Shown in pieces: positions 25,101-49,692 of a DNA stretch of 64,000 nucleotides. How positions within the stretch are numbered: the first letter of the stretch is position 1; the number at the start of each line of letters is the position of its first letter. The position numbers and the translations under genes are program-made. The notes under the pieces are model-generated. The model saw nothing but the letters and a program-made list of their open reading frames with translations. It ran no database searches and was not told where the DNA came from. Source of the stretch: Obrimoposthia wandeli (Eukaryota); NCBI GenBank assembly GCA_977020255.1, contig CDROCS010001609.1, forward strand, positions 186,001 through 250,000. Direction: 5' to 3'.

Positions 25101-28100
25101 ATCTTGGTAGTTGGAATGCTTATAAACGATGGTTAGTTGTTTATTTTCTTAAATTCTTCCTTTTTTGTTTTAATTAATGTTGTCAGCTTTAGCTGGTTTT
25201 TAAACAGGTTTTCACATAACTTCTTGACTGACAAAAGTATTGTTAAATAAATAACACATATAAAGGGAAAATATTTAAAAGAAATTGTTGTTAATATAAA
25301 CTAAATCAAGGAAGAAAATACTCACATGATACGAATCCAGCTTATATTTGTTGAGTAACTCCTGCATTTTAACAAGATTCATTTTCTCCGACGTGAATAC
25401 ATCGGTCTTCTTTTTTAATTCTTTATCTAAACAAAAATGAAGTAACAATCTGGAAAAGCAAAAGAACACATTATGATTTGTACAAATAAAAATAATTTTC
25501 ATAAAGAGCTAAACTAAAAAATCCTGTACACCTTTCTTCAAATTTAACTGTTTGCAATATCCATATAATGATGAAAAATGTTATACAGTTTCTTATTATA
25601 ATACAGTTTGTACTTGAAAAATCCATATTTGTTTAAAAATAATAGTCATTGACATACCCACTACGAGTTCATTGTACTCGAGATAAACATTGGAGAGAAG
25701 GGTATCTCCGGAGATGGTATTGATGGTCTTGGCCTTCACTAGTTCAGTTTTGAGATGTTGAATTTCTGCTTCGAGCTTATCAACGCTAACCTCTTGACGA
25801 AGCTTGTCTTTGCACAACCCCATCTTTATATTGGCCTCCGCAATTGTTTGAATTAGTTCGTCAATTTGACCTTCTTCCTGATCAATATTGTGTTCTCGGA
25901 TCTTCTGTAGCGACTTGGTTAGCAGTTGGTTCTGTTTTTCAAGAATGGCACCTGAGTTTTCCATATTGGCCAGCGAGTTCGCCATGTACTCGATCTTTTC
26001 CACATGGTACTTAGCATCGTAAATGAGACATGCCCGTAAGATCATGGCGCTGATGAACTTTACTTTCCACACCGAATCGGTTTCCACTGAATAATGATGA
26101 AAAATGCGTTAATGATTTTAATTTATTACATTATTCCTTAAAATTAAACATTGTTTACTAACGATATAATGTTTTTTTTTTAAATTGTCATAATAAAAGG
26201 GTTGTTTCTTGTCAAGATAAATAAGTTAATTTAAAATAAATTCTCACTCTCGCTTTCTTTAATTGGCGGAAGTAGACAATGTATAGTCAACTGATATCTT
26301 AGTCGATTGACCTCTTCACGCAGCGACTCCAGATCTCCATGTATATCTAAGTTGATTTTAGCCTTGTTCTTGATCATTTTGGCCCGCCCTGCGAAGCCCA
26401 AAGTAGAGATCGACTCTCGCAAGAAAGCAGCATTTGGGTGGACACATGCAATCAATATCGCCTTGGAATTGCCACCAATCGAGTCCTGAAAATATTAGTT
26501 AAAAAGAATCAGACAAAATAGACTTAATGTAAGTGGTCGACTCAAAAAACCTAAAACTAGATATTAACTGAATATGTTACAATGTTCTATAAGATTATTT
26601 AATAATAGTCTAGTTTTTTTAATATAATTTTCTGAAAGAATATACTGTTAAATAATTTTATTTCGAAACTAACTTTTTTATTATTTTTTGTTTTCAAATA
26701 ATTTCTATTTGTAGAATATAAAATTGTTTTTTTTAATTTTACACGTATTACTAACTTTCAAGATTAAGGTCAACTTGGACTGTCGGTAGCAGACGTGTCG
26801 AGATTTTCCTTTTGATACGTCCGCTAGATTTCGAATGACATTTCCCAATGTCAACAGGGATTGATTGATCATACCGGCCTCCTTGAGACGAGTTCCTTCA
26901 CTCTTGGTGTGGGCCTGTCGCTCACTACCAGCTAAATCAACTAGGTAGAGACAACTACGCTTGATGTTGTCAATACCATTATTTTTCTCCTTCGATTCGA
27001 GAATTAATGAGAAGACGGCATGACTACGAGAACTCTCCCGATTCATATTTGTCGAGGCTACATGACGATTTGCCAGACCTGATTTGAGAACCTGATGGTG
27101 TAGTTAAATAGTGCTAAATTTTTTTTAAATAAATAAAAAATCTTATGCACCAAAAGGGAGACTATTTTTAAATATTTAATACTCAGGTTATTATTTTATT
27201 TGTGTATTTGCTAAAAATCATTGGTATTCTAACATGGAAACAATTAATGCAGAACGGCGACGTAATGTGGTCGATAGATTATATTTGACAATACTGAAAA
27301 GAGCGAATATTTTTGTGATAGTCGGAATAAGAAAAGCTTAAATAAAAAATAATAAATCTAAAACAGATAGAGTGAAATTCAGAAAGTGAAAGTTTTAACC
27401 GTTCAACTAAATACGAAATGCAAAGAAAATCAAAAATGTACTTAACCATATAAATCGTATTCTTCAAAAGAAAATTCACAACTACTTTCATTGTATATAT
27501 ACTTTCATTACTATATGACATTAGAAAACAGACTATCAAGTCAAAATATATATTTTATAATAAAATATGACATTTATAAAAAGTAATTATTTCCAGATAT
27601 TTGAAAAAAAATGTACCTCCTCTGCCTGTTTTGGACTAGTAACGATGACCTCCGTAAGCGGTTGAATGAACACCTCATTGTTTATGTTGACTCGAACATT
27701 AAGCCGCTGTTGTGATTTATCTAGTAAATCATAAACCTGTTCATTATAAATTTCTACGAAAGAGCATTTCAACAGATACTCCACTTCCGACTAAAGCAAA
27801 TAATTAAATTAATTTTTACAATAAAAATACTTTGAGCATTTTTTCAGCAATTCTGTTAAATATATAATCCAATCCTCGGGGAATTAATCCCGGTTGTTGG
27901 GTATTTCCAATCGCATCTGTGACACCTGTCATTGTGTATGTTTTACCACTGCTAGTTTGACCACTATACATTATTAAATAAATAAAATAAATTAGAACTT
28001 ACTATGCAAAAATTGTTGCGTTATATCCATTCATAAATGAATCAAATAAATCTTGACAATATTCAAAAATTTTGTCCTTTAAAAGATAATTATAATAATT

Positions 28101-28304
28101 TAAATGTATTCACTTGTGGTGCATCTTCGTTTGCAACATAGTCGAATGCATACTTTTGGGTTTCCCGATATACAGAATCATCATTCATGAGAATATTACT
28201 TGAAAAATTTGGCCTAATTCTAACAAGAACTTTTATGGACTCTTCTGAGCTTTGACTAAATTTCAATAAACTTATAGCATTAAAAGTTATTACCAAATGC
28301 TCAT
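19105..28304 (-). CDS. KIF15: Kinesin-12 / KIF15-like motor protein, multi-exon
   Basis: Motor motifs KVLVRIRP, IFAYGQTSSGKTYTM, SFVEIYNE, NRESSRSH, LVDLAGSER, RHVCYRQSKLT, DSIGGNS; then coiled-coil exons; last exon IGHSYKKQKIQIMNRMKNE resembles the KIF15/HMMR-type C-terminus; TAA at 19107-19105. Confidence 0.88.
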
Positions 28305-29271
28305 TTTAAATTTTATTTATATAAAAGATTTGAAATATACTTCTTAATATCAGAATAATTAAACAAATTTTTAAATAAAATATTTATTTTAAAGATAATA
28401 ATGTATTTTCATATGATAGTGGGTAAAGTTATTAAAATATAGTAAGTAATGGCAAAAAGTATGATATTATTTTTTTGTTTATTTTAACAACAGTAAACAT
28501 TTTAATTTTACTTTTGAACTTTAATTTCTTGTCGCAAACTTGTACTTTTTCTGGATTTTCGACAACGTGGAAAAGGTTCTGTCCTTAGTGGCTCTTTCGA
28601 TATTCTTGATATTCTTTCGATATTCTTTCGATTTCGATTGTACTGACTTTAAATCGCCTATTCCTTCTTCCTATATGATTTTGTTGGGGTTTCTATTTGA
28701 AATGCTTTGATTCAGATAGATCCCTTAGGGAGGCCCCCAACGTGAGTTCGGTAGAAATAGGGCTTACAGATGGATGTGGCCTATTTAGGTTTTGTATAAC
28801 TTAAATAAGTCTCAGATCTTAATGGGTTGTGCTATTGTTTTTGCGAGATGCGTACAGAGTTGTCTTCACCAATGTAACTGGTAGAGTTCCCGCTAATGTA
28901 GAGTGATGTGTAAATCGGTAAGTAGTGCTCTACAGCTATATGTGGGTACCAGAAATTAATCTATTCGAACTGTAGGAAAAACTATATTATTATACCAACT
29001 AAAAAGAATTTTCACAATTTGACAATTAGGTTGTCTAACGAAAGTTATTTCAAACACACCGTAACAAGAGATTACCCTAGACTGGTTTATGCCTTACAAT
29101 TTTCCTTGTAAATTGGATGTTATGAAGTTCGATCTCTTGATTGCAAAACTTTACAACTACAATTCAATATTACTTCACTATATAAGCTTATAGAATGTAC
29201 TACGCGATTTAAATTAAATTTAGCTTTGTATCGATTTATAAAATATACTCAGCGATTAATTTAACCTTCAC

Positions 29272-31279: not shown

Positions 31280-31924
31280 TCTACATGAGTGGTGTGTTGG
31301 TTAAAATACGTTTCTTTCCTTAGTCTTATATGATTTTATTCCTAATGTTCAATTTATCCTAATGTTCAATTTATCGAATTTTGCCTTATTAATTGGACAC
31401 TTTTCTCACATTCTTAGTATATAATAAAATATCTTTTTAGGTTTTTTATCAATATAATAATGACAATTTCAGATATACATCATACATAAAAATGGTGAAG
31501 GTCATTTACAGTTTTACAAGATTATTCAATAATAATATACAATTTTATGATAGATATTTTATCGCGGTATGCGAAACACGGGTTTAGTTCATGATGTCAC
31601 GTTTTTGTCAAAAAGTTACCTTCGGTTATTGTTGCCTTCTGGGCTGATTTGTCCGTTACTCCTCCACACAAAAATACAACAGCAGTTGCAGATGTCTTTC
31701 CAGCAGTGTACGATGGGTACTACTATCTGGAGGTAATCTCGGTTGTAAATGCGATATACCGAGAAGGATGAGTAGTCGATGGGAGTGTTGCTGTTGACAA
31801 TGAGGATCCAGGTCTCGGGGTATTGAATATGAAATTCGTGTCTGCAGTTGTTGGGTTTGATGTAACAGTCCTGGAATTCCTCGTAGGTGGTGTTGAATTT
31901 GGACTCGATCGAGGGTTGATTGTT

Positions 31925-33810
31925 ACGGGGCGATACTTGGGAGCGGCGTGCAACCTTTGTAACCTTGGCCGTGGACTCCCTAAAAAACCACGCATTCCCA
32001 TCGTGTTTCATAACCTCAAAGGATATGATTTGCATCATATACTTAAATACGCGTTGGGTACATTAAGCTCTTGGGAAATTTCATGTATACCTCAAACTTC
32101 AGAGAAATATTTATCTTTAACTGCATATACTGAATTCTGCAGTTTAAGATTCATAGATTTTCTGCAGTTTTTGAGCGGGTCTTTAAAAAATTTAACGGCA
32201 TCTTTAAATGCATGGCCAATTACACAGTCAGTGTTCCAAGCTTCGGTTAACGATAAGAGGATTTTTCCGCATAAATTTGCGAAAACTTTCGCAGATTTAG
32301 AAAATACAACTGAAATCCCACCCATAACTGAATTTGAGGGTGTAAGTCTTCAAGACTATAATGAGGCCCGTACATTTTGGGTGAATAATTGTCGAAATCT
32401 TTTAGAATATATGCTTTATTATATGAAGTTAGACATTTATCTTTTAGCTGATGTTTTTGAGTCCTTTCGTGTAAAGTCTTTAGCAGAAGATGGGCTAGAT
32501 CCATTGCATTTCTTTAGTTTACCTGGTCATTCATGGGCAACAGCAATAAAAACTCTTAAAATTAATATCGAGTTACTGCAAGATCCCGCGATGTATCAAA
32601 TGTATGATTATGGTATACGCGGTGGAATGAATTTTGTCAACAAACATCATGTTGTCAAAAATCAATCCACGGAGATTCTGTACATCGACATTAATAATTT
32701 GTATGGGTGGGCGCTTACTCAAACTCTACTTCATGCCTACTTTAAGGGTTTATGATGAGGAAGAGTTGAATAAGTTGATGTCAGATTTGGCTACTGTTGA
32801 TACAGTTTCATCAGATATTAGCTATTTGGTTGAGGTTGACTTAACAATCCCTCCAAATGTGCATGATAAATTAGATGATCTTCCAGTAGCGCCTGTTCAT
32901 CAATTCTCACCTAATTCAAAGGTTAAGAAATTATTGTTAACACATGAAGACAAGTTGAATTATGTGGTGCATTGGCGGCTTCTTCAATTCTACTTAAAGT
33001 TGGGAGCGAAAGTTACTCGAATTCATCGTGCTATAAGCTTCAGTCAAAACTTTGTGTTTATGACTATATTGAGAAGAATTCAAGAAAACGTAATTTGGCC
33101 ACTAGCAAATTCGATCGAGATTTTTACAAGTTAAAAAGTAATAGTCTCTTTGGAAAAACTGTGGAGGACTTGCGGAAACGTATTTGTCTACGGTTTTGCA
33201 ATGATGAGCGTAAACTAATAACATATACTAGCAAGTACAAATTCAAGCGTAGTTTTACAATTGCAGATAACTTGGTAGCAGTGTTATTAGGAAAACAGAG
33301 TATTTGTCTCGATCGACCGAGTTATATAGGTCAAACAGTTTTAGACATTTTTCATCTCAGAATGTACGAGCTCCAATATATAGAATTAGAGAAATATCGC
33401 ATGAATTCAATTGTGAGATCAAAATCGCAGCTGGGGACACTGACTCTTTCTTTTTAGAATGTAAAAATGTTAGTTTAGATAATCAATTATTACCGGCAAT
33501 GTTTAGGGACAACTTACTAGATACCCATAAATATCCCGCTAACCATCCTCTACACTCTATGAGTTTAAAGGATATTATCGGGAAATTTAAGGATGAAAGC
33601 GAGGGACAGGTTTCGTATGATGATTGTATTTTCCTACGCCCTAAATGCTACAGTTTACATGCATCTAATAATACATGTTCAATGAGAGCAAAGGGTGTGG
33701 GAAGAAACAATCTTACACATGAGGCCTACCAGGAAGTTTATGATACTGTGTATATTGAAAGCGTTGAGCAAACTAAATTTATTTCAAGAACCCATCAATA
33801 TTTACATTCA
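31925..33810 (+). pseudogene. Protein-primed family B DNA polymerase of Polinton/Maverick type; frameshifted, 5'-truncated
   Basis: HNLKGYD, FIDFLQFL, DIYLLADVFESFR, GIRGG, YIDINNLY, KLKSNSLFGK, GDTDS, GKFKDE, RPKCYS and AKGV spread across four overlapping ORFs. Confidence 0.93.
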
Positions 33811-34480
33811 TTTACATTCAATCTAACTGTAATTTATTCAACGAAAACTCTATTTTAATTTACTTATAGTCTAAATTACACTTGCATTCAATCAAACTAT
33901 CGACACTCTTATTTTTAAATTACATTCACTTGCTAAGACACATACTTGTATTGAAATTCATACTATCAATCACTTGCATTCATACTCGCATTCAATCTAA
34001 CTATAATTTATTCAACGAAAACTCTATTTTAATTTACTTATAGTCTAAATTACACTTGCATTCAATCAAACTATCGACACTCTTATTTTAAAATTACATT
34101 CACTTGCTAAGACACTTACTTGTATTGAAATTCATACTATCAATCACTTGCATTCATACTTGCATTCAATCTAACTATAATTTATTCAACAAAAACTCTA
34201 TTTTAATTTACTTATAGTCTAAATTACACTTGCATTCAATCAAACTATCGACACTCTTATTTTTAAATTACATTCACTTGCTAAGACACATACTTGTATT
34301 GAAATTCATACTATCAATCACTTGCATTCATACTTGCATTCAATCTAACTATAATTTATTCAACAAAAACTCTATTTTAATTTACTTATAGTCTAAATTA
34401 CACTTGCATTCAATCAAACTATCGACACTCTTATTTTAAAATTACATTCACTTGCTAAGACTCTTACTTGTAAATGACAT
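33810..34480. repeat. 174-bp tandem repeat, about 4 copies
   Basis: atctaact recurs at 33821, 33995, 34169 and 34343. Confidence 0.92.
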
Positions 34481-34980
34481 TCATACTTGCATGCATAATT
34501 TTATTCATTTACATTCATTCTACCTCTCATTTATTCAAACTCTCATTCAAATATTCAAATAAATTAATATTTTTACTAATTTTCTATTAATTCCGTTGTA
34601 ACTTAGTCGTTGAAACGAAAAGAATGTATAAAGAATGGACTTTCTTACTTTGTAAATGTTATTCACTTAAGTTTGAAGATGATATTATGAAATTACATAA
34701 TAAATGTGTTTAATTTTGTATTATTCTCTGACTTCTTTCTTATTATTTTTTTTTTTTTGATTTAATACAAATTTTAACATAATTCTTTAGATGTGTAAGC
34801 CTAGGAAAAACTTTAGTCTAAATTTTCGCATAGAATAGTATGTGTGTGATTACGTAATACATTCTTAACTAATAAGAGTGAACTTAGTATAAATTTCACA
34901 TAAAATAGTGTGTGTATGATTACGTCATACATTCTTAATTGATAAGAGTGAACTTTATCCTAAATTTTCATTATAGACTA

Positions 34981-35535
34981 GATCACAAAAAAGAAGGGTG
35001 GAGACTAAGCCACTTGATCCTTTGAATTAGTAGTTAGCCAAAAAGAAGGGTGGAGACTAGACCACAAAAAGAAGGGTGGAGACTAAGCCACTTGACTCTT
35101 TGAATTAGCAGTTAACCAAAAAGAAGGGTGGAGACTAGACCACAAAAAGAAGGGTGGAGACTAAGCCACTTGACCCTTTCATAGTGGTATATCACAAAAA
35201 AGAAGGGTGGAGACTAAGCCAGCCACTTGACCCTTTCATAGTGGTATATCTCAAAAAGAAGGGTGGAGACTAAGCCACTTGACCCTTTAAACTATGGACG
35301 ACCATAGTGGTATATCAAAGAAGGATGGAGTCTAAGCCACTTGACCCCCCTATCCTTCCCCTCCCCTCCCCTCTCGCCTCCCCCTAAAGGGTGTCATACC
35401 ATAAGGGTATATGTTGCCTCACCAGAGGTGAGGCAACATATACCCTTATGGTGTGGCAAGACACCTTTATGGTGTGACATCCTTATGGTGTGACACCCTT
35501 TAGGGGGGGGTCAAGTGGCTTAGACTCCATCCTTC
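34981..35535. repeat. Iteron-like direct repeats plus nested palindrome
   Basis: Eight aagaagggtggagacta(agccacttga) copies; 31-bp perfect IR at 35320-35350 / 35505-35535; 25-bp perfect stem at 35398-35422 / 35428-35452. Confidence 0.9.
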
Positions 35536-35538
35536 TAC

Positions 35539-36125
35539 CTACTTATATGCATGTATTATTTTAGGTAAAACTTGGACCCATTTTTTATTTCCTTCTTTTG
35601 TGAAATACCTTTTTATTCGATCTCTTAAAGTACGATTAAATCTTTCTACTACTGCTGCTTTGTATTGTGAAAACACAGAGTAGTGATTTATATTATTTTG
35701 TTTAAATAATGATTGAACTTGCTTATTATAAAATTCTTTTCCTAAATCAGTTTTCACATTTTGTGGAATGTCCTCTTTTAATATTTCTTTAATGGCTTCA
35801 AGCATATTGAAGACTTTGCATTAACTGGAATTGCACGAGCAAACCTGCTAAATACATCAATACACGTTAAAATATATCGATATCCCTTATTAATGGAAGA
35901 ATATGTGATCATCTCCATCAAATCCATTTGCCATAAATTATTAGGACCGCTGGTTTTGTAAACTCTAGTTGGAAACCTTCTTCTCATCGGTTTGTTCAGA
36001 CTGCAAGCTAACTGGTCGCTCAGCCATTTCTGCGTTTTCTTGTAATTGTGTTTTGTTCTTTTTGCTTATTTTAAAACTCCGGTGTAGCCAATTGGATCTT
36101 TTGGATTGAACCATATCTTCTTCAT
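35539..36125 (-). pseudogene. Polinton-type retroviral-like (rve) integrase, C-terminally truncated
   Basis: MKKIWFNPKDPIGYTGV..KWLSDQLACSLNKPMRRRFPTR, LWQMDL, YILTCIDVFSRFA, KTDLGKEFYN, KAAVVERFNRTL; one stop and one frameshift. Confidence 0.92.
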
Positions 36126-36211
36126 TACAACAATTTGAATAGAAAGAAAATTTAAATTTAGGTAAAGAAGGGTTAGCCCCCATATCTTTAGCTGATTTTA
36201 TAAATAATTGC

Positions 36212-36541
36212 TTATGAACGTGTCACAGCTATAATACTACTGATAATTGAAGCAACAACTGGAATAACAGCCCCTATGAAACTACCATTCTGTTTAAGAA
36301 TAATATTTCGTTTCCTTTTTTTACTTTTTACATTAGGAATATCTAGAAGAGTTTTTCTATATTTCTTTAATATATTTTTCCGTTTTCCAACTTTTACTCG
36401 ACCCAAAACAATATTATACAAAACTTCCAATAAATCATCTACAACAAAAGATGGAAATGCTTTAAGAATAATCATTCTCTTATGAGAAGAGGCTTTGACT
36501 AAAGCTTTAAAATAGGGTATGCTTCTTTGTATTTTCTTCAT
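36212..36541 (-). CDS. Small basic Polinton protein with KQNGSF plus hydrophobic tail (core/pX-like)
   Basis: 109-aa intact Lys-rich ORF ending KQNGSFIGAVIPVVASII; lies between integrase and ATPase. Confidence 0.6.
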   Translation of the reverse strand: MKKIQRSIPYFKALVKASSHKRMIILKAFPSFVVDDLLEVLYNIVLGRVKVGKRKNILKKYRKTLLDIPNVKSKKRKRNIILKQNGSFIGAVIPVVASIISSIIAVTRS

Positions 36542-36556
36542 TTTAATAAAAAAGGT

Positions 36557-37390
36557 TCAATTTAAATATTGTTTATATTCGAAGCCATTAAAGTTTTTTT
36601 TATTTCTCACTACAGATTTAATTAATTTATTCACTTCTTTTTTCTTAATGATTCTTTTTATTGATTTCTTAGATTTTACTTTACGTTTTCGTTTCACTAT
36701 CAACTTCTTAAAAAGCTAAAAAATTTATCTTTTATAATTGTTCTCTATTTGTTTATAAACAGTTACTCCCTTAGAATTAAATATGTCTGTTAAAACACGT
36801 AAATCATCTGGGCAAGCTTGTGTAAAGTCAATAAATATATACCCATGTGCTTGTTTAGCGGCATCATGGAATGAATCAACTAGAAAGTGCTTATTTTGAG
36901 GAAACGCCTTCTGGCCACGAAATCTACAACTGTTTGATCTCTAGGATTTTTAAATAAAACTAAGTAATGTACATTAAGATTTCTTGTTCTATGGTGACCT
37001 CCTTGGTGAAAAAGATTTTGAGTGATAAATATAACTGTTACTTCACAATGTCTTGCAATCTTTGTAAATAAATTATTAAAGTCCGATTCCTTGTTAGCTT
37101 CCTGATACAAATCATCAATTATTATTACATCTTCTTTTTTCAATCTTTCACACCAATTTGCATCAAATCCTTTAATAAATTTTATTACCTTCAACTTGCA
37201 AACTTCTGTTTGGGTTAATCCACTTTCCTCTCCTCCACCATGATGCCAATAAATATTTTTGAAACTAGAATTGAAAAGAGATTCATTTTGCAACAATTTA
37301 CATTCGAAATGTGTCTTTCCACTTCCACTGGGACCAACTATTTGAAATACAGCATTATTATTTAGCTCCCTTGCATATACTCTTTCATTT
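36557..37390 (-). pseudogene. A32/FtsK-like DNA packaging ATPase of Polinton
   Basis: Walker A GPSGSGKT, Walker B IIIDD, ITQNLF, LNVHYLVLFKNPRD, HGYIFIDF; frameshift near 36900 and no in-frame start. Confidence 0.9.
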
Positions 37391-37408
37391 TTAATATTGT
37401 TTATATTA

Positions 37409-37690
37409 TTATAGAAGTTTCCTTATTGAAATGTACAATGTTAGAGCTATTGTAGATGAAATACAAAAATTAATTAATGAATAATTGGCTATAATTTTAT
37501 TTATTTGTGTACGATTTCTAAATTCTCGAATAACGTGTGATCTAACCAATATTTCAATGTTATCTCTTGTTATATCATTATTTTTTAACTCTGATAAAAT
37601 TTCTTTACCCCTAATTTTTCCAGAAAATATTTCGTCGGCAAGACGATCCACTTCATTGTCTGTATTTATAGTATTATTCATTTGAAACAA
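37409..37690 (-). CDS. Hypothetical 93-aa protein with hydrophobic C-terminus
   Basis: Intact ORF tightly packed and co-oriented between the ATPase and TBP-like genes. Confidence 0.45.
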   Translation of the reverse strand: MFQMNNTINTDNEVDRLADEIFSGKIRGKEILSELKNNDITRDNIEILVRSHVIREFRNRTQINKIIANYSLINFCISSTIALTLYISIRKLL

Positions 37691-37708
37691 TAAGTTTAAA
37701 CAGTTTGT

Positions 37709-38209
37709 TTATAGAAAAGATAACAAGATGTAATAAGATATATTTTCTAAAATCAAATCAACAATGTCTGGATAATCAAAATTTTTCAATCCCAATATCA
37801 TAACTTTACCACTGGAAAATATATTTACACATAGCGGTTTAAACTTCAAAAAACTGAGAGCAGGAAAAATTTATGGTTCAAACATGCATTCTTCTTTCAT
37901 TTTCTCTGCAGTTTTAAAAAGATTTATCAGTTTCCCAAAATTAGCCGAAATCGTGATTGATTGTATTGCAGTGATTTGAATTCCAAATCGTAAATTGAAC
38001 CCAAGCATTGGTATTTTGCATCCCATAACACGACAATTTCCTAAAGGAATTCAATATGAAAATAAAATAAAAAACTAACCTGTAGGAAAAATAACAACGG
38101 TGAAATTGTCAAACTTTTTCACATATTGTCTCGGCTTCCATTCATTGAATGGTAAGTACGAAACATCATCTTCTATTCTACCTTTATAATTTATATTTAC
38201 GAATTTCAT
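37709..38209 (-). pseudogene. TATA-binding-protein-like gene, two exons, one premature stop
   Basis: Exons 38209-38080 and 38040-37709 with a 39-nt GT-AG intron give 153 codons: TVVIFPTGNCRVMGCK ... IQSITISANFGKLINL ... FEP*IFPAL ... VNIFSSGKVMILGLK, aligning to both TBP repeats. Confidence 0.8.
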
Positions 38210-38789
38210 TAGACTAAAATTGTATTCTGTAAAATCTTCTTTATATATGTCTGAACCTGCTTTTTTATTGCATGTTTCTTGTAATTATCTTCCAAACCCA
38301 TTATAATTTGGATGATATATTTCTTCCAATCAAATTTGATTTTTAATATGGATTTAGTCCAATCAAATTCGATGCTTTAGTTATATTAACCAATGAGATT
38401 CATGTCTTTGTTAGAAATTAGTATAAAAGAATGCGCCATTGAAGGACAAATCACAGTAAATGCATTCATATCAAAGACAATTATCAACGATGTACGATAG
38501 TCAACGGATATTAAGCGGTGACGAAGAATTAGAAATGTAATCCGTTTTATATGCACTGGTGGAGAGACTACATGCTCATCAAGATCATGTCTGCAGATGT
38601 CTTTAACCAACGTCCTCTACAAGGGCTCACAAGCCAAACAATTGAAGGATACTTCGCATCCACAGCCAACGCGCTACCGCAAGCCGGGAAAAACCAGATA
38701 CTCGCCATTACAGAAACTGCCATCATCCAACTGAAGAAGACGATGCAGCCATTTTTTACAATGACTCCAGTGGATGGTAAGAAATAAGA

Positions 38790-40209
38790 AGACAGAAACA
38801 ACAATTGATGCAGAAGAATCAGCCAAGCCTTATTGATGCCTATCAAAAGAATATGCCAACCTCAACTTTTCAGATGCCGCAAGATTTCTCAGATGTAGAT
38901 TTAGACGGAAGAATGGCTATTATGGCAAAAAAGGATATGCCCCCTTTGCCGCTGTTAAAGCTTCAAGACAGAGGAAACGTAAAGTTATAAATCCTCAAGA
39001 GAGTGTTCCTATTGACGCCTGTATACAAGCTCTCACCAAAACTGGCATTGTAGAAAAATCCACGAAAGGCCCGTTCTGGTCACAAGTGAGGATGGTACCG
39101 AAGACTAACTCACAACTGCGGAGGCTAATGGTGGACTTCAAACATCTGACACCACACTTGCCGAAGCTCTACATGAAAATCCCAAATATTTTCCATAAAC
39201 TCGAGAAGATACTAGAAGACAGAAGAGCTATTTGGATAGATTTACGTGGAGCTTTTTTCTAAGTAAAAATTAGACAGGCGTCAAGACATCTCACAAACAT
39301 TTGGCATAAAGATAGCTTTTATAGATTCACAAGACTTCCAATGGGCTTGAGGCAAAGTCCTGTCATATTGCAGTGGATCATCACCAGAATACTGAGACAA
39401 CTGGTGACGAAATGGACGGTGGATGTGGCCCACGTTCATATTGACGACATCCTAATAATCGCTAAAAAGAAAGCCAAAGTTTGGAATCAAATCGAAGATT
39501 TCTTCAAAGGTTGGGGCCTTCAAATCAACTATGAAAAATCACAATTGCAGCCAACAAACAAGTTGGAATATTGCGGAATGTTAATCGACATCAAGGCCCA
39601 GTAGATCAGATTACCTAATGACAAATGGAGGTCAACAGATGACATCAAAGAAAAAGAGCAGTTCACAGATGATGCAATCGATTTTCTCAACTACGTAAGT
39701 TGTGTGCTACACTGGCCCTATGTGACAAATTATGTACACACGACATTGAGAAAAAGATGCTACCAATTATTGAAGATCTATGCATCATTATGGAGTTGGA
39801 GGAAGGAGAAGCATCAACTTTGGGCCTCAGACGCCACAAATAACACAATTGCAGTCACGCAAATCAGGCCAAAGATCAAGACACATATGACAGCAAAAAT
39901 CGAATACCAGAATATATACCTACAAGAGGCTACGGCCTCATGACCATGTGGAAGGCAAAAAGACACGACATGATCTTATGCGACAATATGGCCCTGATAT
40001 GGTGTATCAGAAATAGAAGGATCCCCAAACAAATCAAACATTGGCGGATATTGATAGCGATACAAATGATGGCCTCCATCAAACGCCTACAAGTGCAGTT
40101 CATCCGGACGGAAGACAATCTAGCGGACGCACCCACAAGAGCACAAGAGATACCACAAGAAGACAGGGGAATCCTGCTGTCATACGAGATGCACCAGCCC
40201 ATCTCATAA
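38790..40209 (+). pseudogene. RT-RNase H pseudogene with hepadnavirus/nackednavirus-like (or DIRS-related) motifs
   Basis: One frame: RLMVDFK, WIDLRGAFF*, RLPMGLRQSP, HIDD, GLQINYEKSQLQP, SDAT; after a frameshift near 39930, CDNMAL and NLADAPTR. Confidence 0.85.
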
Positions 40210-40369: not shown

Positions 40370-41982
40370 TCTAAAAGATTTAATTAAGAAAAACAGAAGA
40401 ATAACAGTTATGAAAGCCAGCCGCTAGGAGAAATAGCAGTTGCTGTTCACTCCCAGACTCAGAGTGCATTAGCAACGTGCGAACAATCCAGCTGCCGGGA
40501 CGAGTAAAGTTAACAACCACTTAAATTAAGAGATAGTTAATTTAAGATTTTTCCCTTGCAGGAGCCGGAATTCACAGACATATACTTCGCAGTCATATAA
40601 ATTAGAAATTTCAGGGAAATTAAACAAAAAAGAAAAAAACGTAAAAAAGAATCCGAATAACTATCCGAACTGTGAAATAAAAAGAATCCTAACGACTATC
40701 CGAACTAAACAAAAACTACAGAAATCAGAGAGATTAACCAGTAAATTGATATATATAAGAAATGAAAAGGGTAATTCTTCGAACTCGCAATAGAACTGAA
40801 TGTCCAAAATCACGAGACAAGCCAACAGAAACAGAGCAAGGAATCAAACGAACGCCGAGTCGAACCATGCGAGACAGGACCCAGGAATCTGAGAGATTAA
40901 TTCCGAGTATCAGAGCCAATGAACAAGGCCTAGCAATTGATCGGCATTAGGGAGTGAATTAGGACGGACCTCGGAAAACAATCCTAGACTTACTGGTGGG
41001 GAGAGAGTAACATTCGAAATTTATTGCTTCAGTAATTTTGTCATTGGAAATAATCAATTCTGCTATATATCATTTCAGTAATTTGTCATTGAAAATAATC
41101 AATTCTGCTGTATATCAATTCAGTAATTTGTCATTGAGATTAATCAATTTTGCCGTAGTCTTTTGATATAAAATAGTTAATTAAATGGTTAATAGTCGGG
41201 TTCAGATCGTTAATCGACGCTTAAACAAATCAGTAAAAAACTAATTAATTTTATGTTAAATGTGTTTCTTTGTATTTTTTATTATTGTTGTATCGACTGG
41301 CAATTAGCAGCTAAACTGCATAATTGAAGTTTTAATTGAAATTAAAAATAAAGAATCAATACATGTTTATCCTCTTCTCAATTCTCAAATCAACCACAAA
41401 TCAACTTAACACGTAGATAATTTCAGTAATTTTGTCATTGAAAATAATCAATTTTGCCGTATTTTGTTGAAATAATCAATTCATATTGTTCGAAGTACTT
41501 TCACTAGTGACGTAACCTATTTGTAAGCAACATATTATTGAAAAGTATCAAATTTGTATTGTTGCAAGATATCGATTCATATTACTCAGAAGTGTCCGAT
41601 TCGTAATAGTGAGAAACTATCTACGCGTGTAATCAAATTTAGCAAATTAAATTGTAACTAGGAAGCGTACCCCAAATCTTTAACTTACTAGGAATAGTAG
41701 AATATATTCTAATCTATGGTCATCGTTATTTGTGGTTTGTTTGAACTAAGTGTTGTTTGATCAAATTGTTAAAACCTCTTTAGTTGGTGTAATAATATAG
41801 CTCTTTCCTACAGTTGACTATATTAATTCAGGTACCCATATATAGCTATAGAGCACTATCAACCACGTTCACATCACACTAAACTAAAAATATAGGCCCC
41901 ATACACCTGTAAGCCCTATTGCTACAGAACTCACGTTGGGTGCCTCCATACGAAGATCTAATCTCAAATAGAAACCCCAACA
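40370..41982 (+). mobile_element. LTR-like element (copy 2), opposite orientation, left end truncated
   Basis: Ends aatagaaaccccaaca; contains taagccctattgctacagaactcacgttggg; ~46-bp internal repeats at 41029-41160 and 41421. Confidence 0.7.
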
Positions 41983-42230
41983 AAGGTACTCCAGGATGAG
42001 AGTTGTTGGGCGTCACCCAGTCTCATGTGGCTGGGATAACGAGAAGTTATCCCGAAAGGGGTGAGGCCACGATTCCGTCTGGACCGCCACCTTTCTGTCA
42101 CCTGCAGTCGCATGTTCCTGTGGCGTTGGGGACACGCGGGGCATTGACGGTGCTCTCCTCCGTTGCAGCTGCCTGGGGAGTGATGTCCCACTGTCTGTCC
42201 ACGGACGACCAGCTTCATTAGGATATGTAA
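41983..42230 (-). pseudogene. Diverged partial paralog of the RING-gene C-terminal region
   Basis: GQTVGHHSPGSCNGGEHRQCPACP...VTERWRSRRNR aligns with GRLVGRHSATSCIGGE*CQCSTCP...VMEVWRSSRDR. Confidence 0.65.
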
Positions 42231-43151: not shown

Positions 43152-46100
43152 ATGCCTGAGGTTATTTATTTAATTAATCAATGAAATTACATTTACCATT
43201 TTAAAGCCAATAACTGTATTGCTAACCGGAGCGGCTGGTCAGATTGGGTATGCTTTGGTATCAGCTGTTGCTAACGGTTCTATCTTTGGTCCGAATCAGG
43301 TTTCGTTTTTGTATTTTATTGCGAGATTTAATTCTTTTTTAAATAGCATGTGATCTTGCATTTGTTGGACATTCCCCAAATGCTTCAATCACTCAATGGT
43401 CTCATAATGGAGCTGGAAGATTGTGCTTTTCCTTTGTTGAAAAGTGCATTTTATATAATTGATTTTCAGTAATTAATATTTTTCAGAGGTCATTGCAACA
43501 TCGGATCTGAAAGAAGCGTTTACTGATGTTGATTACGCTCTGATGGTGGGTGCAATGCCCCGAAAAGAGGGCATGGAGCGCAAGGACTTGCTGAAGGCCA
43601 ATGTCAGCATCTTTAAGGTACAAGGAGAGGCGCTTGACAAGCATGCCAAGAAGACGGTTCGTGTACTTGTGGTCGGGAATCCTGCAAATACAAACTGCTA
43701 CATCATGAGCCACTATGCACCATCAATTCCCAAAGAGAACTTCTCTGCTCTTACAAGACTCGATCACAACAGAGCTCAGGCGCAGGTGTGTATTAAGTAT
43801 AACGCTGTAAACATTGTAAGTGGAAAACTTTACTAATAATTTGAGTTCATTTATTATTAGAGTAAATATTCTGTAACATTTTTGATATTCACTCAAAATG
43901 ATTAATCTGTTTCACAGATTAGAATCCTATAAATTTACTAATTGTAATAAAATCAGTGAAAACTTCATTCAATTCAATCAAAAGTCATAAAACCTTTGCT
44001 ATGAAGTGCATATTTGTTACCATATGCGTATTTTATGTTGAAATATTTTCAGGATTTAATTAATAATGTATAATTTAGATCATACGGATGTAATTTAACA
44101 TTATGGATTAGGTATATTATTGAGTAAAAATATTCTAAAATTTTCATTTGAATGAGTCCTGCTAATTTATATATCTTTTCAAACAAACTTATCTGTAATC
44201 TTTGGTTTATAAGTTTGAATGTGTGTTTTAGCATTACCTGAAAATGATATTTTTCAAAAATAGAGCTGATAATTAATAATGAATATAGAAAAATAATGTT
44301 TACATGCTAACTGAAACTATTTTTTAGAATAAATACACCGGGTAAATTTTTTATTAAATGAAAGAGTAATTAAACAGTCTATAAAGAAGATGAAAATCGT
44401 ATGTTTTTTATGTGAATTTAATGTAAAAGAATTTATTAGACTGGTAAAGTGAGTTTATAAAGAACATATTCAATGTAAAATAACAATTCTTGGCCAAAGA
44501 ATTGTGTTTGTAAATATTTCAAAATTTCGGTGTTGAATTTTTGGTATTGAATAATGAAAATATTCACCTTTCCATTGCAATAATGTTATTTGGTGATTAA
44601 ACTAACATACTCTCTAACCTTTGTAAATATTTTGGATTTAGGTAACTTAAGCTAGGATTAATCAATAACTACTTCTTTAATTGTAATTAATCCATCTAAT
44701 TTTAGCGAATGCAGTTATTTGGTGATAGAAGCTCGTATAAAACTTCGAACTACGGTTTAATGTCATGAAAATAAACGTATTTTCTAATTGAATAGTATAT
44801 CGATCATAAATCTGAGTTTATTCATTGTTTAAAGTCAAAAATCACCTGTGTTATGTATTTATAAGATATCTACAGTAACATGCAAACAAATATTTCTGCT
44901 TCATATGTTTCAAAAATTAAATATGTAATTTTCGTGTAGTCATTTTCTTTTTCCCTTTCAGAAGGCCTAATTTTATAAATCACGATTTTGGCGTGAAAGA
45001 AGAACAGTGAAGGCTTGTCCAGTGGACAATGTCCGCTGTATTTTCAGTATTAACTTGATTTTGTACTATTAATTTATATAAATTATTTAAATACTGTAAG
45101 GACTGTTTTGCAATGTACAAATAAATTAATAAAAAATGTGTTTAATTTCCATTTCTTTTTTGGTTTCCTAAAAAGTACCGAAAATAACTTAATTTTTTGA
45201 GTACCGATTAATTATTAAATCGAACTCTAAATGAAAATATAAATCTTAAAAAGAAAGTTGACTAACGCAGATTAGTTTGAATAAGAGTTGGAAATGTACA
45301 AAATGTCGCTTGTTTAGATTGGATTTCTATCGTAATTTGTCTTATAACTATCCTTCACCATGTTGCAGATTGCTAACCGAGTTGGAGTGGCCTGCAATAG
45401 CGTGTCACGCTGCATCATCTGGGGCAACCACAGCAGCACGCAGTACCCGGACGTGAGCCACGGTATCGTACATGGTCTGGACGGCAAGCAACACAGCGTG
45501 AAGGATGCCGTCAAGGACGACTGCTGGCTCAAAAGCGAGTTCGTAAAGACAGTGCAGACTCGTGGGGGAGCTGTCATTGCCGCCCGAAAACTCAGCAGTG
45601 CTTTATCGGCTGCCAAGGCTATTGCGGACCACTGCAGAGACTGGTTCCATGGCTCGGTAAGTGATATCTCAATGTTCTAGAATCATTCGTCATTTGACTA
45701 TTTACAAAATGATTATTGATTATTTATTAAAATTTATTCAATAACATAATTTCTTAAAGGGCCATCAATTTAGTAAGTAAGCACTGAGACTGAGAGAAGA
45801 AATGCATACATAGTGATGAAGGATATGTGCTGGAAAGCATATGAAAGCGGTATACTCTGAAAAATGATATTATATAATAAAAATATGTCGCTAAAATATA
45901 CAGTTGCTTTGTCATGTCAGTTTTTTTCAATATTGTGGGCCAATCATGTCATTGAGAATAGCCGAGGAATTGTGAATTATAGCTAGGTGTAGCGAGCCTG
46001 CATTCTTCACTTTTTAATGATTCAATGCCTGTCTAACAAAGGCTTTGTTCTTACATTCTCAGCCAATTTTGTGATGGATATATTATGTTTAAGCATCGCA

Positions 46101-49100
46101 TTATATGTTCATTTTTCCCACTGTGTATGTTCAATTGTATTCACGTCAGATATGATTACATTTACTGATTTGTAGATTTGGTAGTAACTCAATCTTATAG
46201 ATTTTTAAGATCGAAAGGTTTTCATAGAATAAATATGCGATCAAATTGCATTCGAAAAGTTTATGATTATGTATTAGTATGAAGATCATGATAGCGGTAC
46301 CCCGTAAAATGAATAATTGTGTACATAGGGTGGATCCCTTCAAGATGGTCAAAATTATGCAATATTATGCGTACGTACTAAATGGATAACATCGATAAAA
46401 TCCAAAATATTCTTTACAATTTTATAATGTGCAGTTTTCTATACATTTTAGTGAACAATTGTACAAATAAACAATGTTTCAATAGATTACAATAGAAGAG
46501 TTGTCTGATTAAATTATTCATTCTTTTATTATTCTTATGACATTTAACAATATCTATTGGTGTTGGCTGGATAGTAATATTTCTGCTTAACACACCAGTT
46601 TGACCAAGTACAGACGAAGAATCGCGTCTGGAACAAACTGCAATGTGCGTACGTGACAAAGTACATATGAATTGTTTATTATATGCTGGGGTAAACAGAC
46701 GCCATTTGTGACCTATAATTTTAATTGGCACTGTCGTAATAATTACCACAGTTACCGGAAACAGATCTAAACTTGAGTTTACAGGTTACTACATCAACCA
46801 ATATTTGTTATGAGAAAATTCGTTTGAAATTATAAAATGAATTAAATTTTATAACAAACACAAAATTTTAAACATTAGTAGAAAATTAGTATTTAATTTT
46901 ATCACAAATTTTGCTTTTAAATGTCTGTTACATAAAGATTTAACAATATTATAAATATTTATTTTTCTTGGTTAGCATTGAGAAAATATCGAAATATAAT
47001 AAGAAAACTGAGATGCCTATTACATGACATTATTAGATAAATACTTTACTTACAAAATTCTTTACTTTAATATTCCAGTTAATCAATTAATCGCTTAACA
47101 AAGCTGTCAGAATTATATTCAAATTACAAAAATGTGTTAGTACAATTGAACATTTAATGGAGCTCCATTGCTTACTGATCATTGCCAGAATTTAATTTAA
47201 GATCCCTTTTATTACAAAAATTATATTTTGTCACAAAATCCTAAATATTTATATGGTTGTCTCGAGCCTGGTACAGTAAATATTTATATGCATCTTAGGG
47301 GCAACGATGACAGAAGATGGGTTAATAAATTCTTAAATAACACAGATTAATGGAATATTTGAAATTTAAGCTCCGATTTTTTCTCAAACTGTAACAATCT
47401 AGAAAAATTTAAGAAGCAACTAACGATTTTACTATGGGTGCGAAATTTGGACTAGTCAAATCGGTTAATTTTATCATCAAATAAAAAAAAATAGCAACAG
47501 AAAAAAAAAGTTGCACACAGAAAAATAAACTAGCATCAATTAAATAAATTTGCAAGAAATTAAATAGCTTTTACTACTAATTAAATTTATATTTGCAACA
47601 ATAAAAAATCATACTATATGCTTTTTTTTTCAATAGTCAAATCGATCAAATTTATCATCAAATAATATTTTTTTTTCATCAAATTTTTTTTCAAATTATA
47701 CATAATTAGATAAATTAAAAATATTCGATATTATTGGAATTTATAAGAAATAAAGGAAAACTAAGTATTTCCAGCAATAATAATGTGGTCATTTTCAATA
47801 ATTTAAATGAAGATGTTAAGACAATTCAAACTTTTGATAAAGCGATTGAAACAAACTTTTCAATAAGTACTGTCTCAGTTAATAATGATATATGGAAATC
47901 ATCAAAGTGTACTTGTGCTTCGTTTTTCAAGAACTACATATGTAAACATATAGTCATTTCTGCACTATTATTGAAACTAACAACTGATGATGAAAGGGCT
48001 AAATCCATATTTTAGGGTCAAAAGAAAAAACGCGGTCGTCCTAAGAAAGCAACTCGTGCGTTAATAATTTCTTAATATACATTTTGAATTATGTTATACG
48101 TTATATTCATTTAATTTTAAAATATTACCTTTTATAATCCCATATAATCCCATTTTAAGTTGAGAAACATAATATTTTAGAAACTAAATTTAAAATAAAA
48201 TTCTTAAAGTTCTTATGTTTTACGTTATATTCTTCTAAGAAACTAAATTTGATGCTAAAATTATTTTTTAGATGGTGAAAAATAATTAAATATTTGACTG
48301 TATTTTTTATTGTTTTGATGATAAAAAATTATTTCGCGTTTTACTATTTACAAATATTACGAAGAAAGCTCTTTTGACTAATAAAATATTATTTTATTAG
48401 ATATTATCGCTTTATTAAATATATTATTGTGATGGTTATTATTTTTATTCTAACTAAACAATGGCACAATATTATGTCATTCTCTTGATAATTTATGGAA
48501 TAATATGTAATTATTAGATCATTTAATTTTATATCAATGTGACAGTAATCAGTGCAATATTTTTTTAATTAACAGCTTTGGTGTTAAACTACTAATAGGA
48601 TGGAAAATTCTCATCTTGAGCAATATTGTACTTCTAAAATGTGCTTGTAAATAGTGCATAGATCATTTATGAAAAATCTTACGCGAATATTGTAAAAGTT
48701 GCTTATTTACGGCTCATCTAAAATTTTCCTTTTCAAAAACTTAATAATTTATATATAAGTGATTTATTTTCTCAGTAATGGAATTATATTAACAAAATAA
48801 TAACGTTTTCCCTTTATCGAAAGAGAATAATTTTAGTTTAAATGGGTTAGGTTATTACGAAAATGTTATAAAATTAATCAGATTTTGAAATATCAACATT
48901 TTCAGAAACGCAGTATTTTATATATATATCGGCAGTTAGTTGTATTTGAGGCAAGTGAAAGTAGAATTACGCCAAAAATTAGGGCCTCATAGTTGTATTT
49001 GATTTTATTATAATGATATTTTTTTGTTGCTCTACGTAAAAGTATTAAATAATTTTTTTAAAAGGTTTGCATAGTTTCTATAAAATTTATATCTAAATAG

Positions 49101-49692
49101 GCTCTTATAGGCCCTGTATATATATATATGAAAATTATATTTAGTTATAACAATAAAATATTAGGTACGATCTATTGCGAAAAAAGTAAATACTTGTTTT
49201 GATTTTTTTTATAAATTCTATTGTTGCAAAATAGATCCAAATATTTCAGGTTGCTGTTTAGAAAGATTCAAATCTCCTGACTTATTAATAAAAGTTTTCT
49301 AAACATCAGCATTGTGTAATCTGTATCCGTATTATCTTTTTTAATTTAAATAATTTAATTTGTTATTGATATAAAATATTTTTTGTAATCAAGATATTAA
49401 AAAAGCATTAAAACATATTTCCCTTTGAGAGAAAATTTTAAAGTTGTACTATTTTATTTTACAATGAATATATTCTGGTGTGCAGAAAGAATGGGTATCA
49501 ATGGCTGTCTACAGCGATGGAAGCTACGGAGTACCTGCCGACATATTTTACAGTTTCCCGGTCACGATATCTGGAGGCAAATGGCACATTGTGCAGGGTC
49601 TGTCTGTAGATGACTTCTCTCGCCAGAAGATGGATGACACCGCCAAAGAACTCGTACAGGAAAAGACGGATGCGGTTTCCTTCTGCAGTTGA
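43152..49692 (+). CDS. MDH1: Cytosolic malate dehydrogenase, multi-exon
   Basis: [108 protein letters not shown]; GT-AG introns. Confidence 0.97.
47860..48075 (+). pseudogene. MULE-type transposase C-terminal remnant (SWIM finger plus AT-hook)
   Basis: [18 protein letters not shown] followed in frame, past a stop, by KKKRGRPKK. Confidence 0.65.

Follow-up and report, generated by a model that had tools for sequence, protein, structure and literature searches.

The window analysed here is a 64,000-nt stretch of the genome of Obrimoposthia wandeli (contig CDROCS010001609.1). It contains a TBP-like gene at 37709-38209 on the minus strand, with its ATG at 38209 and its terminal stop codon at 37711-37709. 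Exon 1 (38080..38209, 130 nt, minus strand) encodes a helix-less N-lobe, strands S1-S4, as judged from the homologue alignment and the AlphaFold model, and exon 2 (37709..38040, 332 nt, minus strand) encodes the end of the N-lobe, a short linker and a complete C-lobe. The exons are separated by a predicted phase-1 GT-AG intron of 39 nt (38041..38079, minus strand) with two in-frame stops inside it. A premature stop at 37871..37873 (minus strand), codon 100 of the spliced frame, falls in the C-lobe stirrup loop and breaks the window copy.

The Polinton copy and its decay

The TBP-like gene was said at first inspection to be co-oriented with an ATPase gene run, and TBP, orf99, ATPase, orf114 and integrase are indeed all on the minus strand. 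The gene orf99 (37409..37681, 90 aa from its ATG), which gave no Pfam hit above cut-off, follows TBP in 10/10 family-1 neighbourhoods. Next come an A32-like packaging ATPase broken into two frames (36725..37371; PF04665, 28 bits), the conserved small gene orf114 in the ATPase-integrase gap (36212..36541; its cluster, C4, is found in 9 metagenome loci), and an rve integrase remnant (35543..36128), matched by PF00665 below cut-off in two pieces. The integrase is cut at 35543, where a TIR-like repeat-rich segment (34681..35543, unstranded) has inverted matches to both ends of family-3 elements. On the plus strand lies a frameshifted remnant of a protein-primed PolB (31921..33798; PF03175, E 8.5e-14) that is 95-97% identical to family-1 PolB. 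On the other side of TBP, an unrelated RT element (38537..40209, plus strand; PF00078, 64.5 bits) replaces the Polinton left arm from 38537, the point at which family-1 copies diverge from the window. The RT element has 39 other matches, most of which begin at that same point, as for a repeat family with a sharp end. Its RNase-H-like tail gave no Pfam hit, and carries motifs that we take to recall DIRS or hepadnavirus-like retroelements.

In ten neighbourhoods of sister copies, complete or cut, the order is C1 (minus), TBP, orf99, ATPase, orf114 and integrase, then a capsid block of probable minor capsid gene, C15, probable major capsid gene (MCP) and protease, and then PolB (minus). The capsid-protease block is missing from the window copy. 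In sum, the window Polinton copy is decayed, with ATPase and PolB frameshifted, the integrase truncated and TBP broken by a stop.

Several repeats surround these genes. A near-perfect hairpin of about 215 nt (35319-35536) ends the TIR-like segment, after 26/52-nt repeats, and 174-nt tandem repeats occupy 33812-34633. Another candidate for the element TIR, an inverted repeat at 28.7/41.9 kb, was set aside because 56.1-56.4 kb and other loci match it too; its arms (28680-29011 and 41771-41984) are an inverted pair of a dispersed repeat that encloses the whole element cluster. Host genes with short introns flank the cluster, a kinesin at 25596-28305 (minus) and a cytosolic malate dehydrogenase (MDH) at 43152-49692 (plus).

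A single in-exon stop had been noted, and there is one, at 37873-37871. It is not private to the window copy, being common to 11/29 of the nearest copies by DNA, and it is present at 2-5% of contig depth (four contig runs, one sample). A test for a stop-bearing sub-lineage amplified in trans gave no support to the idea: no linked site was found between 12 stop-bearing and 40 other copies, and the distances in this comparison are equal (0.041, 0.039 and 0.038). The stop is therefore recurrent or shuffled among copies.

Profile and fold

Read through with X at the stop, the window TBP matches PF00352 at 40.4 bits (E 2.6e-10; cut-off 22.9), and intact homologues score 45-65 bits. A sequence search of the PDB gave 36 hits, the weakest being Hfq (E 0.72); the titles of the other 35 describe TBP chains or fusions, one of them without a name. 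An AlphaFold (AF2) model of the window TBP, built from a 17-row alignment, has a pLDDT of 90.7, and falls below 50 only at residues 47-51, which lie within the read-through intron. Foldseek with this model gave 44 PDB matches at E<=0.001, the next best being at E 0.11, and the matches listed are all TBP or TBP-containing entries. An intronless homologue is modelled with the same fold (AF2 pLDDT 94.0) and likewise has 44 Foldseek matches; TM scores across the matches of the two models are 0.56-0.72. By profile and model, then, 37709-38209 (minus) encodes a two-lobed TBP-fold protein of the PF00352 superfamily, far beyond chance. The profile score of 40.4 bits and the 44 Foldseek TBP matches thus uphold the original prediction of a TBP fold. 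That prediction also held that the fold is recovered only after intron removal. The 39-nt GT-AG segment is as described, but splicing is not needed to recognise the family, since exon 2 alone scores 38.9 bits with PF00352.

Copies, relatives and selection

The TBP gene is abundant in the host genome. At least 150 near-identical copies exist: 150 of 47,608 candidates were scored, and all are full length and 89-100% identical. A DNA query with the window gene gave 1,983 candidates. At least four TBP-bearing Polinton families are present (L115-L134, L182/L186/L190/L193 and L200-L211), and families 1, 2 and 4 show 55-58% identity in the protein encoded by exon 2. About 88 of 150 family-2 hits have one common score, which suggests that family 2 spread very recently.

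Outside this genome, a profile of 15 homologues retrieved 434 proteins, with 56 representatives at E<=1e-30, and 52 metagenome loci encode a TBP relative, with varying gene order. A Polinton core gene is found in 22/52 of these loci (ATPase in 13, integrase in 10, protease in 10, probable MCP in 8 and PolB in 2), and in 13/19 of the contigs of at least 3 kb. This linkage agrees with the placement of the gene in a Polinton-like element. Pfam confirmed the ATPase, integrase and protease in metagenome loci and PolB in the window remnant; pPolB (PF03175) and rve integrase (PF00665) occur in the window remnants and in contig L049. The protease matches PF00770 at E 1.1e-7 in contig L054 and has homologues in sister copies but none in the window copy. 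The probable MCP is a conserved gene of 403-427 aa at the expected place. Pfam names neither capsid gene, and we take them to be probable major and minor capsid genes from size and gene order. The A32 ATPase (PF04665) and the adenain protease by which Polintons/Mavericks (adintoviruses) are recognised are both found in the family. A search of viral contigs gave no relatives of the TBP alignment, of host TBP or of the MCP alignment, and one distant ATPase hit.

Other genes were seen beside TBP. Gene C1, for which a family search gave no family, adjoins it in 17/52 metagenome loci (L031-L082) and in host families 1 and 3 (L093, L190). A gene that is presumably DEDD-nuclease-like occurs in 18/52 metagenome loci, and LRR, RING, UBC and DSP phosphatase genes are carried as cargo.

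The dN/dS of TBP is 0.06-0.27 in 9/10 metagenome pairs, the remaining pair being saturated. Among young copies, rare variants are close to neutrality (16 synonymous and 48 non-synonymous changes, on 91 and 365 sites), the pattern to be expected if the copies are decaying. The TBP gene is a stable part of the Polinton/adintovirus lineage, and is under purifying selection. Profile, fold, linkage to Polinton genes and dN/dS together bear out the description of a divergent, element-borne TBP-fold factor.

The original prediction offered capture from the host as one origin. In a quick tree of 86 rows, from which nucleocytovirus TBP sequences were left out, the family and a sister group with a longer N-lobe stand apart from 11/11 cellular TBPs with support 100, and host TBP is placed among the eukaryotic TBPs. 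This tree gives no support to capture, at least as a recent event. A TBP/TRF cargo gene or pseudogene recently taken from the host, with a host-inherited intron, would explain the stop in the window copy and the short intron (39 vs 43-47 nt in a host gene), but is at odds with the separation from host TBP and its paralogues in the tree, with the low dN/dS and with the intronless homologues in many metagenome contigs that carry Polinton genes. Host genes also lack an intron at that codon, as described below, and we consider recent capture very improbable, indeed largely refuted.

The sister group (P0212-P0267, alignment A4) consists of proteins of 150-180 aa with the longer N-lobe and the same rewired motifs. 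A4 is homologous to the family at probability 100, and the E-x-E stirrup is kept in 9/18 of its members. In one case, L082, the gene is close to a fragment of a Polinton-type ATPase. In the host, canonical TBP is head-to-head with a close paralogue, and two more divergent TBP-like genes are present (L103-L108; C238, C968, C60, C1092).

Anatomy of the protein

The ten-strand saddle is kept. In both AF2 models helices are found only in the C-lobe, and N-lobe helices H1/H2 are absent. The linker between the lobes is 19 residues (median of 139), vs 32-33 in six cellular TBPs, and the best 120 TBP relatives are 131-194 aa long. Both C-lobe stirrup glutamates, which we take to be E186 and E188 in yeast numbering, are kept in 153/160 homologues; the window copy is broken in the stirrup loop. 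F116, F190 and F207 are retained in 159, 160 and 160, respectively, of the 160 full-length homologues, in line with the earlier view that three of the four intercalating Phe positions survive, and there is no conserved Phe at F99. Elsewhere the DNA face has been rewritten: V122 is R in 159/160, T124 is M in 160/160, N159 is S in 160/160, L205 is N in 160/160 and T215 is mostly L. Thus N69 is kept and the rest of the central hydrogen-bonding set N69/N159/T124/T215 is replaced. Yeast numbering follows Table 1 of PMC12529657, carried over by an alignment of the family with cellular TBPs. The invariance of N5, N7 and Y8 is circular, since the 160-homologue set was filtered on the N-x-N-Y motif. 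The family belongs to the TBP superfamily, but is not a canonical cellular TBP. Cellular TBP/TRF shares with it the two-lobe saddle, complete C-lobe, three Phe, N69 and stirrup glutamates; cellular proteins differ in having H1/H2, F99 and N159/T124/T215, and the Polinton family is a separate clade.

Two of these features bear on partners. Two acidic residues of a C-lobe loop contact TFIIB and not DNA, and a basic patch of N-lobe helix H2 is the contact for TFIIA, TAF1, Mot1 and Brf (PMC7221094). A genome profile search gave 29 candidates for PF00382 (TFIIB family) vs 19,768 for PF00352, so no TFIIB encoded by the elements themselves could be detected. Five of the eight PF00382 loci were read, all host-like, and no element-borne TFIIB was found among the element ORFs scanned with Pfam.

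The protein might instead bend DNA for replication, integration or packaging, for instance at AT-rich terminal repeats, with no role in transcription. Such a role would suit the loss of the N-lobe regulatory surface in both models, and the divergent transcription of TBP and PolB in family 3. It would not account for retention, in 153/160 homologues, of stirrup glutamates that face TFIIB and not DNA (PMC7221094), or for the existence of a box linked to gene starts. We judge it improbable, and prefer a role in transcription.

A predicted intron in the TBP gene

The 13 alignment columns of the intron are exactly absent from 16/16 of the first database homologues of the window TBP. Its GT and AG are kept in 29/29 of the nearest copies by DNA; in these copies indels are found in 13/29 introns (39 nt) vs 5/29 exon sets (462 nt). 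These are traits of spliceosomal (U2) introns: GT-AG ends are kept, the interior tolerates indels and removal restores the alignment. Splicing of 38041-38079 is likely, as predicted from this intron-shaped insertion. Among the joints listed for the four contig runs none skips the intron, a result that speaks neither for nor against splicing. Introns are found at the same site in other lineages. Host family 2 has a GT-AG intron at the same phase-1 site, 39-51 nt long, in 20/20 loci, these having been chosen by a protein query that favours triplet intron lengths. In host family 4, with 11 of 12 loci parsed, the same-site intron is 37 nt in 10/11 and 36 nt in 1/11, with GT in 10/11. The metagenome contig L060 has a 40-nt GT-AG intron at the same codon and phase. 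The non-triplet lengths in family 4 and L060 would make splicing a requirement there. An intron of host size had been proposed. It is short like those of the host, but the sizes are not equal, the MDH gene introns being 46, 47 and 43 nt.

No intron is present in host family 3 or in the 36 further metagenome loci that were parsed, and host TBP and its three paralogues are uninterrupted at the intron codon. The intron was therefore probably gained in the element lineage, the second of the two origins first suggested. The number of gains is less certain: an intron at one site in four lineages could reflect parallel gain, repeated loss or the swapping of genes. A clade uniting families 1 and 2 with L060 is rejected (AU p 0.001) by a backbone tree of ATPase, integrase and MCP, built from 10 rows in which some genes are missing; this tree makes L060 sister to the intronless L049 with bootstrap 95. 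A TBP tree of 26 rows, with family 4 left out, is compatible with a single intron clade (AU p 0.40). A single gain, followed by frequent loss or by swapping between elements, would fit this TBP tree and the identity of codon and phase in all four lineages; the backbone tree runs against it, as do the introns themselves, since the three that were compared resemble one another no more than shuffled sequences do (62-276 of 500 shuffles scored as high), and the local sequence, since 28/40 intronless contexts have TG|G, AG|G or similar Gly codons. The proto-splice site is ready only in part at the intronless contexts, with AG|G in 6/40. We give a single gain even odds against parallel gain at one site.

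Among 310 proteins, 13 start at a Met just past the intron site, as gene calls of exon 2 alone would. The intron, or a break at its site, may be more widespread among homologues. Introner insertions are known in dinoflagellate Polinton-like elements (PMC11957031). The intron departs from a statement in the available text of PMC8097293 that intact vertebrate Maverick genes are intronless.

The TATAAAC box

Several of the element genes are preceded by a 7-nt motif, TATAAAC. In the window, minus-strand copies lie before orf99 (37707..37713; 48/51 family-1 copies), where the TBP terminal stop codon falls inside the box, before the packaging ATPase (37399..37405; 40/44 copies) and before orf114 (36571..36577; 43/44 copies). 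TBP has instead a canonical TATA-like box, TATATAAA (38240..38247, minus strand), 38 nt before its start, a candidate early promoter. Across the family, TATAAAC is found 32-48 nt before 14/14 ATPase starts (shuffle mean 0.5, maximum 3) and before 8/8 MCP starts, vs 1/44 TBP starts. TBP upstreams have canonical TATA in 25/44, CCAAT in 17/44 and an Inr-like TCA motif in 32/44. With near-copies collapsed, TATAAAC precedes ATPase in 11/11, MCP in 7/7, C15 in 5/5 and TBP in 1/35, and canonical TATAWAW is present in 17/35 independent TBP upstreams. EXO upstreams, also collapsed, have TATAAAC in 5/7 and ATAAAC in 7/7. The collapsed distribution is patchy for integrase (1/4), protease (2/4) and mCP (0/4, with ATAAAC in 3/4). 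Family 3 repeats the pattern, with TATAAAC absent before PolB, TBP and C1 (six upstreams). The box is strand-biased in elements, and shows no enrichment in the flanking 49.5 kb of the window, where it makes up 21/173 TATAAAN.

A reading of the box as a poly(A) signal was rejected. The letter before ATAAAC is T in 33/36 and C in 3/36, never A; the spacing is constant relative to the start of the downstream gene, and the upstream reading frame contains several of the boxes. Protein constraint can conserve such boxes, given their position inside upstream coding sequence. A palindromic double box with TATAAAC on both strands lies at 36751-36760, near the ATPase end. In family 3 (L182, L190), PolB and TBP diverge from a short common promoter with repeated CCAAT and canonical TATA.

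Consensus TATA is TATAWAWR, and a Phe pair intercalates at step 7/8 (PMC1935006). The C at position 7 of TATAAAC departs from this consensus; if the step-7/8 pair is that of the N-lobe, as we presume, the most remodelled lobe would face the sole position at which the box differs from TATA.

A different reading has TATAAAC as a weak TATA for host TBP or a paralogue, with the element TBP a decoy or repressor that titrates host TFIIB by means of its retained stirrup or occupies the early promoters of the element. By the title of PDB entry 1qn3, wild-type cellular TBP was crystallised on a C(-25) TATA variant, which suggests that host TBP could use the TATAAAC box, and the host owns TBP and at least three paralogues. 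Replacement of the central hydrogen-bonding residues N159, T124 and T215 could likewise mean weak DNA binding. The replacing residues are, however, near-invariant (R 159, M 160, S 160 and N 160 of 160), as would be expected of a new specificity more than of a loss of binding, and the box is fixed before late-type genes and rare before TBP itself (1/35 upstreams). We regard a decoy as unlikely, though less so than a purely DNA-bending role, and favour recognition of the box by the element TBP. Searches for a TBP-less Polinton as control, with PF03175 and PF04665, led to TBP-bearing elements in 4 and 2 traceable neighbourhoods; a third A32 hit, L229, matched no element gene, and a PF00770 genome search found nothing. 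A dependence of the box on TBP is thus putative.

Discussion

The gene was first described as encoding a promoter-recognition factor, and a role of this kind is likely in light of the candidate box TATAAAC. We propose that Polinton TBP is a one-protein late-promoter factor that uses host TFIIB and Pol II, by analogy with the herpesvirus vTBP, and put the probability of this reading at roughly 60%. It builds on the fold, linkage, selection, intron-shaped insertion, residue pattern and box distribution; the binding, recruitment, timing and splicing steps we infer as follows. Host TFIID would read TBP and PolB early, from canonical TATA/CCAAT promoters, and in intact copies the TBP mRNA would be spliced and a mini-TBP made early. 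The mini-TBP would bind TATAAAC before packaging, probable capsid and nuclease genes, its rewired saddle reading the C at box position 7. The intact C-lobe would recruit host TFIIB and RNA polymerase II, and loss of the N-lobe helices would remove the docking of TFIIA, TAF1, Mot1 and Brf1, allowing escape from host control. Packaging and capsid genes would then be turned on in cis or in trans; if the mini-TBP acts in trans, broken copies like that in the window would need no TBP of their own. Against the host-TFIIB reading, most viral TBPs have left host TFIIB (PMC7221094).

Several features recall the vTBP of beta- and gammaherpesviruses (PMC12529657): a TBP fold without a viral RNA polymerase, kept Phe residues, a polar-rich DNA face with V122, L205 and others replaced, and a putative non-canonical TATA before late/structural genes, TATT there and TATAAAC here. 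The differences are as marked. KSHV ORF24, at 752 aa, carries an N-terminal domain that binds Pol II and works in a multi-subunit complex, whereas Polinton TBP is about 150 aa; ORF24 keeps four Phe, whereas Polinton TBP is without the F99 Phe and the N-lobe helices; and ORF24 is TFIIB-incompatible according to a section heading of that paper, whereas Polinton TBP keeps the TFIIB glutamates (PMC12529657). The Pol II-binding N-terminal domain and the additional C-terminal DNA-binding domain of the ORF24/BcRF1/UL87 type have no counterpart in the top representatives, and the best 120 relatives are only 131-194 aa long. EBV BcRF1 is a BFVD structure hit at E 4.3e-3. Polinton TBP thus probably works like the herpesvirus vTBP without being a member of that group.

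Nucleocytoviricota mostly carry their own RNA polymerase. Their TBP-like proteins are matched in BFVD at best at E 2.7e-6 and 15% identity, and share the two-lobed fold, the L5.1 Phe and loss of the eukaryotic N-lobe signature (PMC7221094). They mostly have their own TFIIB and a diverged stirrup (PMC7221094), whereas no TFIIB was found in the Polinton elements. Polintons/Mavericks as described by Barreat and Katzourakis (2021; PMC8097293) agree with the present elements in PolB, rve integrase, A32 ATPase, adenain protease, probable capsids and, in sister copies, TIRs; the available text of that paper has no mention of TATA or TBP, and describes the genes of intact elements as intronless.

Earlier work has already marked a TBP-like gene in a Polinton-related genome. 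The label "TBP" is given for MELD viruses with adintovirus-like PolB in the Fig. 5 legend of Starrett et al. (2021; PMC8502044) and in legends of bioRxiv 10.1101/697771, as a legend label only; the available text of PMC8502044 and one supplement describe no TBP family, promoter, mechanism or intron. No description of the TBP family or the box was found in the available text of a literature that includes PMC10748475, PMC11161782, PMC11131425, PMC8097293 and 10.64898/2026.06.19.733378; subscription journals, Repbase, figures and bioRxiv supplements are outside this scope and may bear on novelty. Within it, a figure-legend label is the only trace of Polinton TBP found in print.

More tentatively, and at somewhat less than even odds, the features may combine into a Polinton one-protein early-to-late switch, in which the N-lobe surface has been deleted, the saddle re-specified for TATAAAC and host TFIIB engaged directly, without a viral TFIIB, polymerase or complex, and in which an intron, acquired repeatedly at one codon by several element families, would place the gene under host splicing control.

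The finding bears on whether Polintons run a real viral programme. A named factor, a 7-nt box and an early/late split make the timing of Polinton capsid and packaging genes testable. A TBP of about 150 residues without N-lobe helices would be the smallest natural test of which TBP surfaces are needed for transcription, and Polinton TBP and TATAAAC might serve as an orthogonal TBP-promoter pair. Copies and boxes number hundreds to thousands in the genome, and could affect host transcription too.
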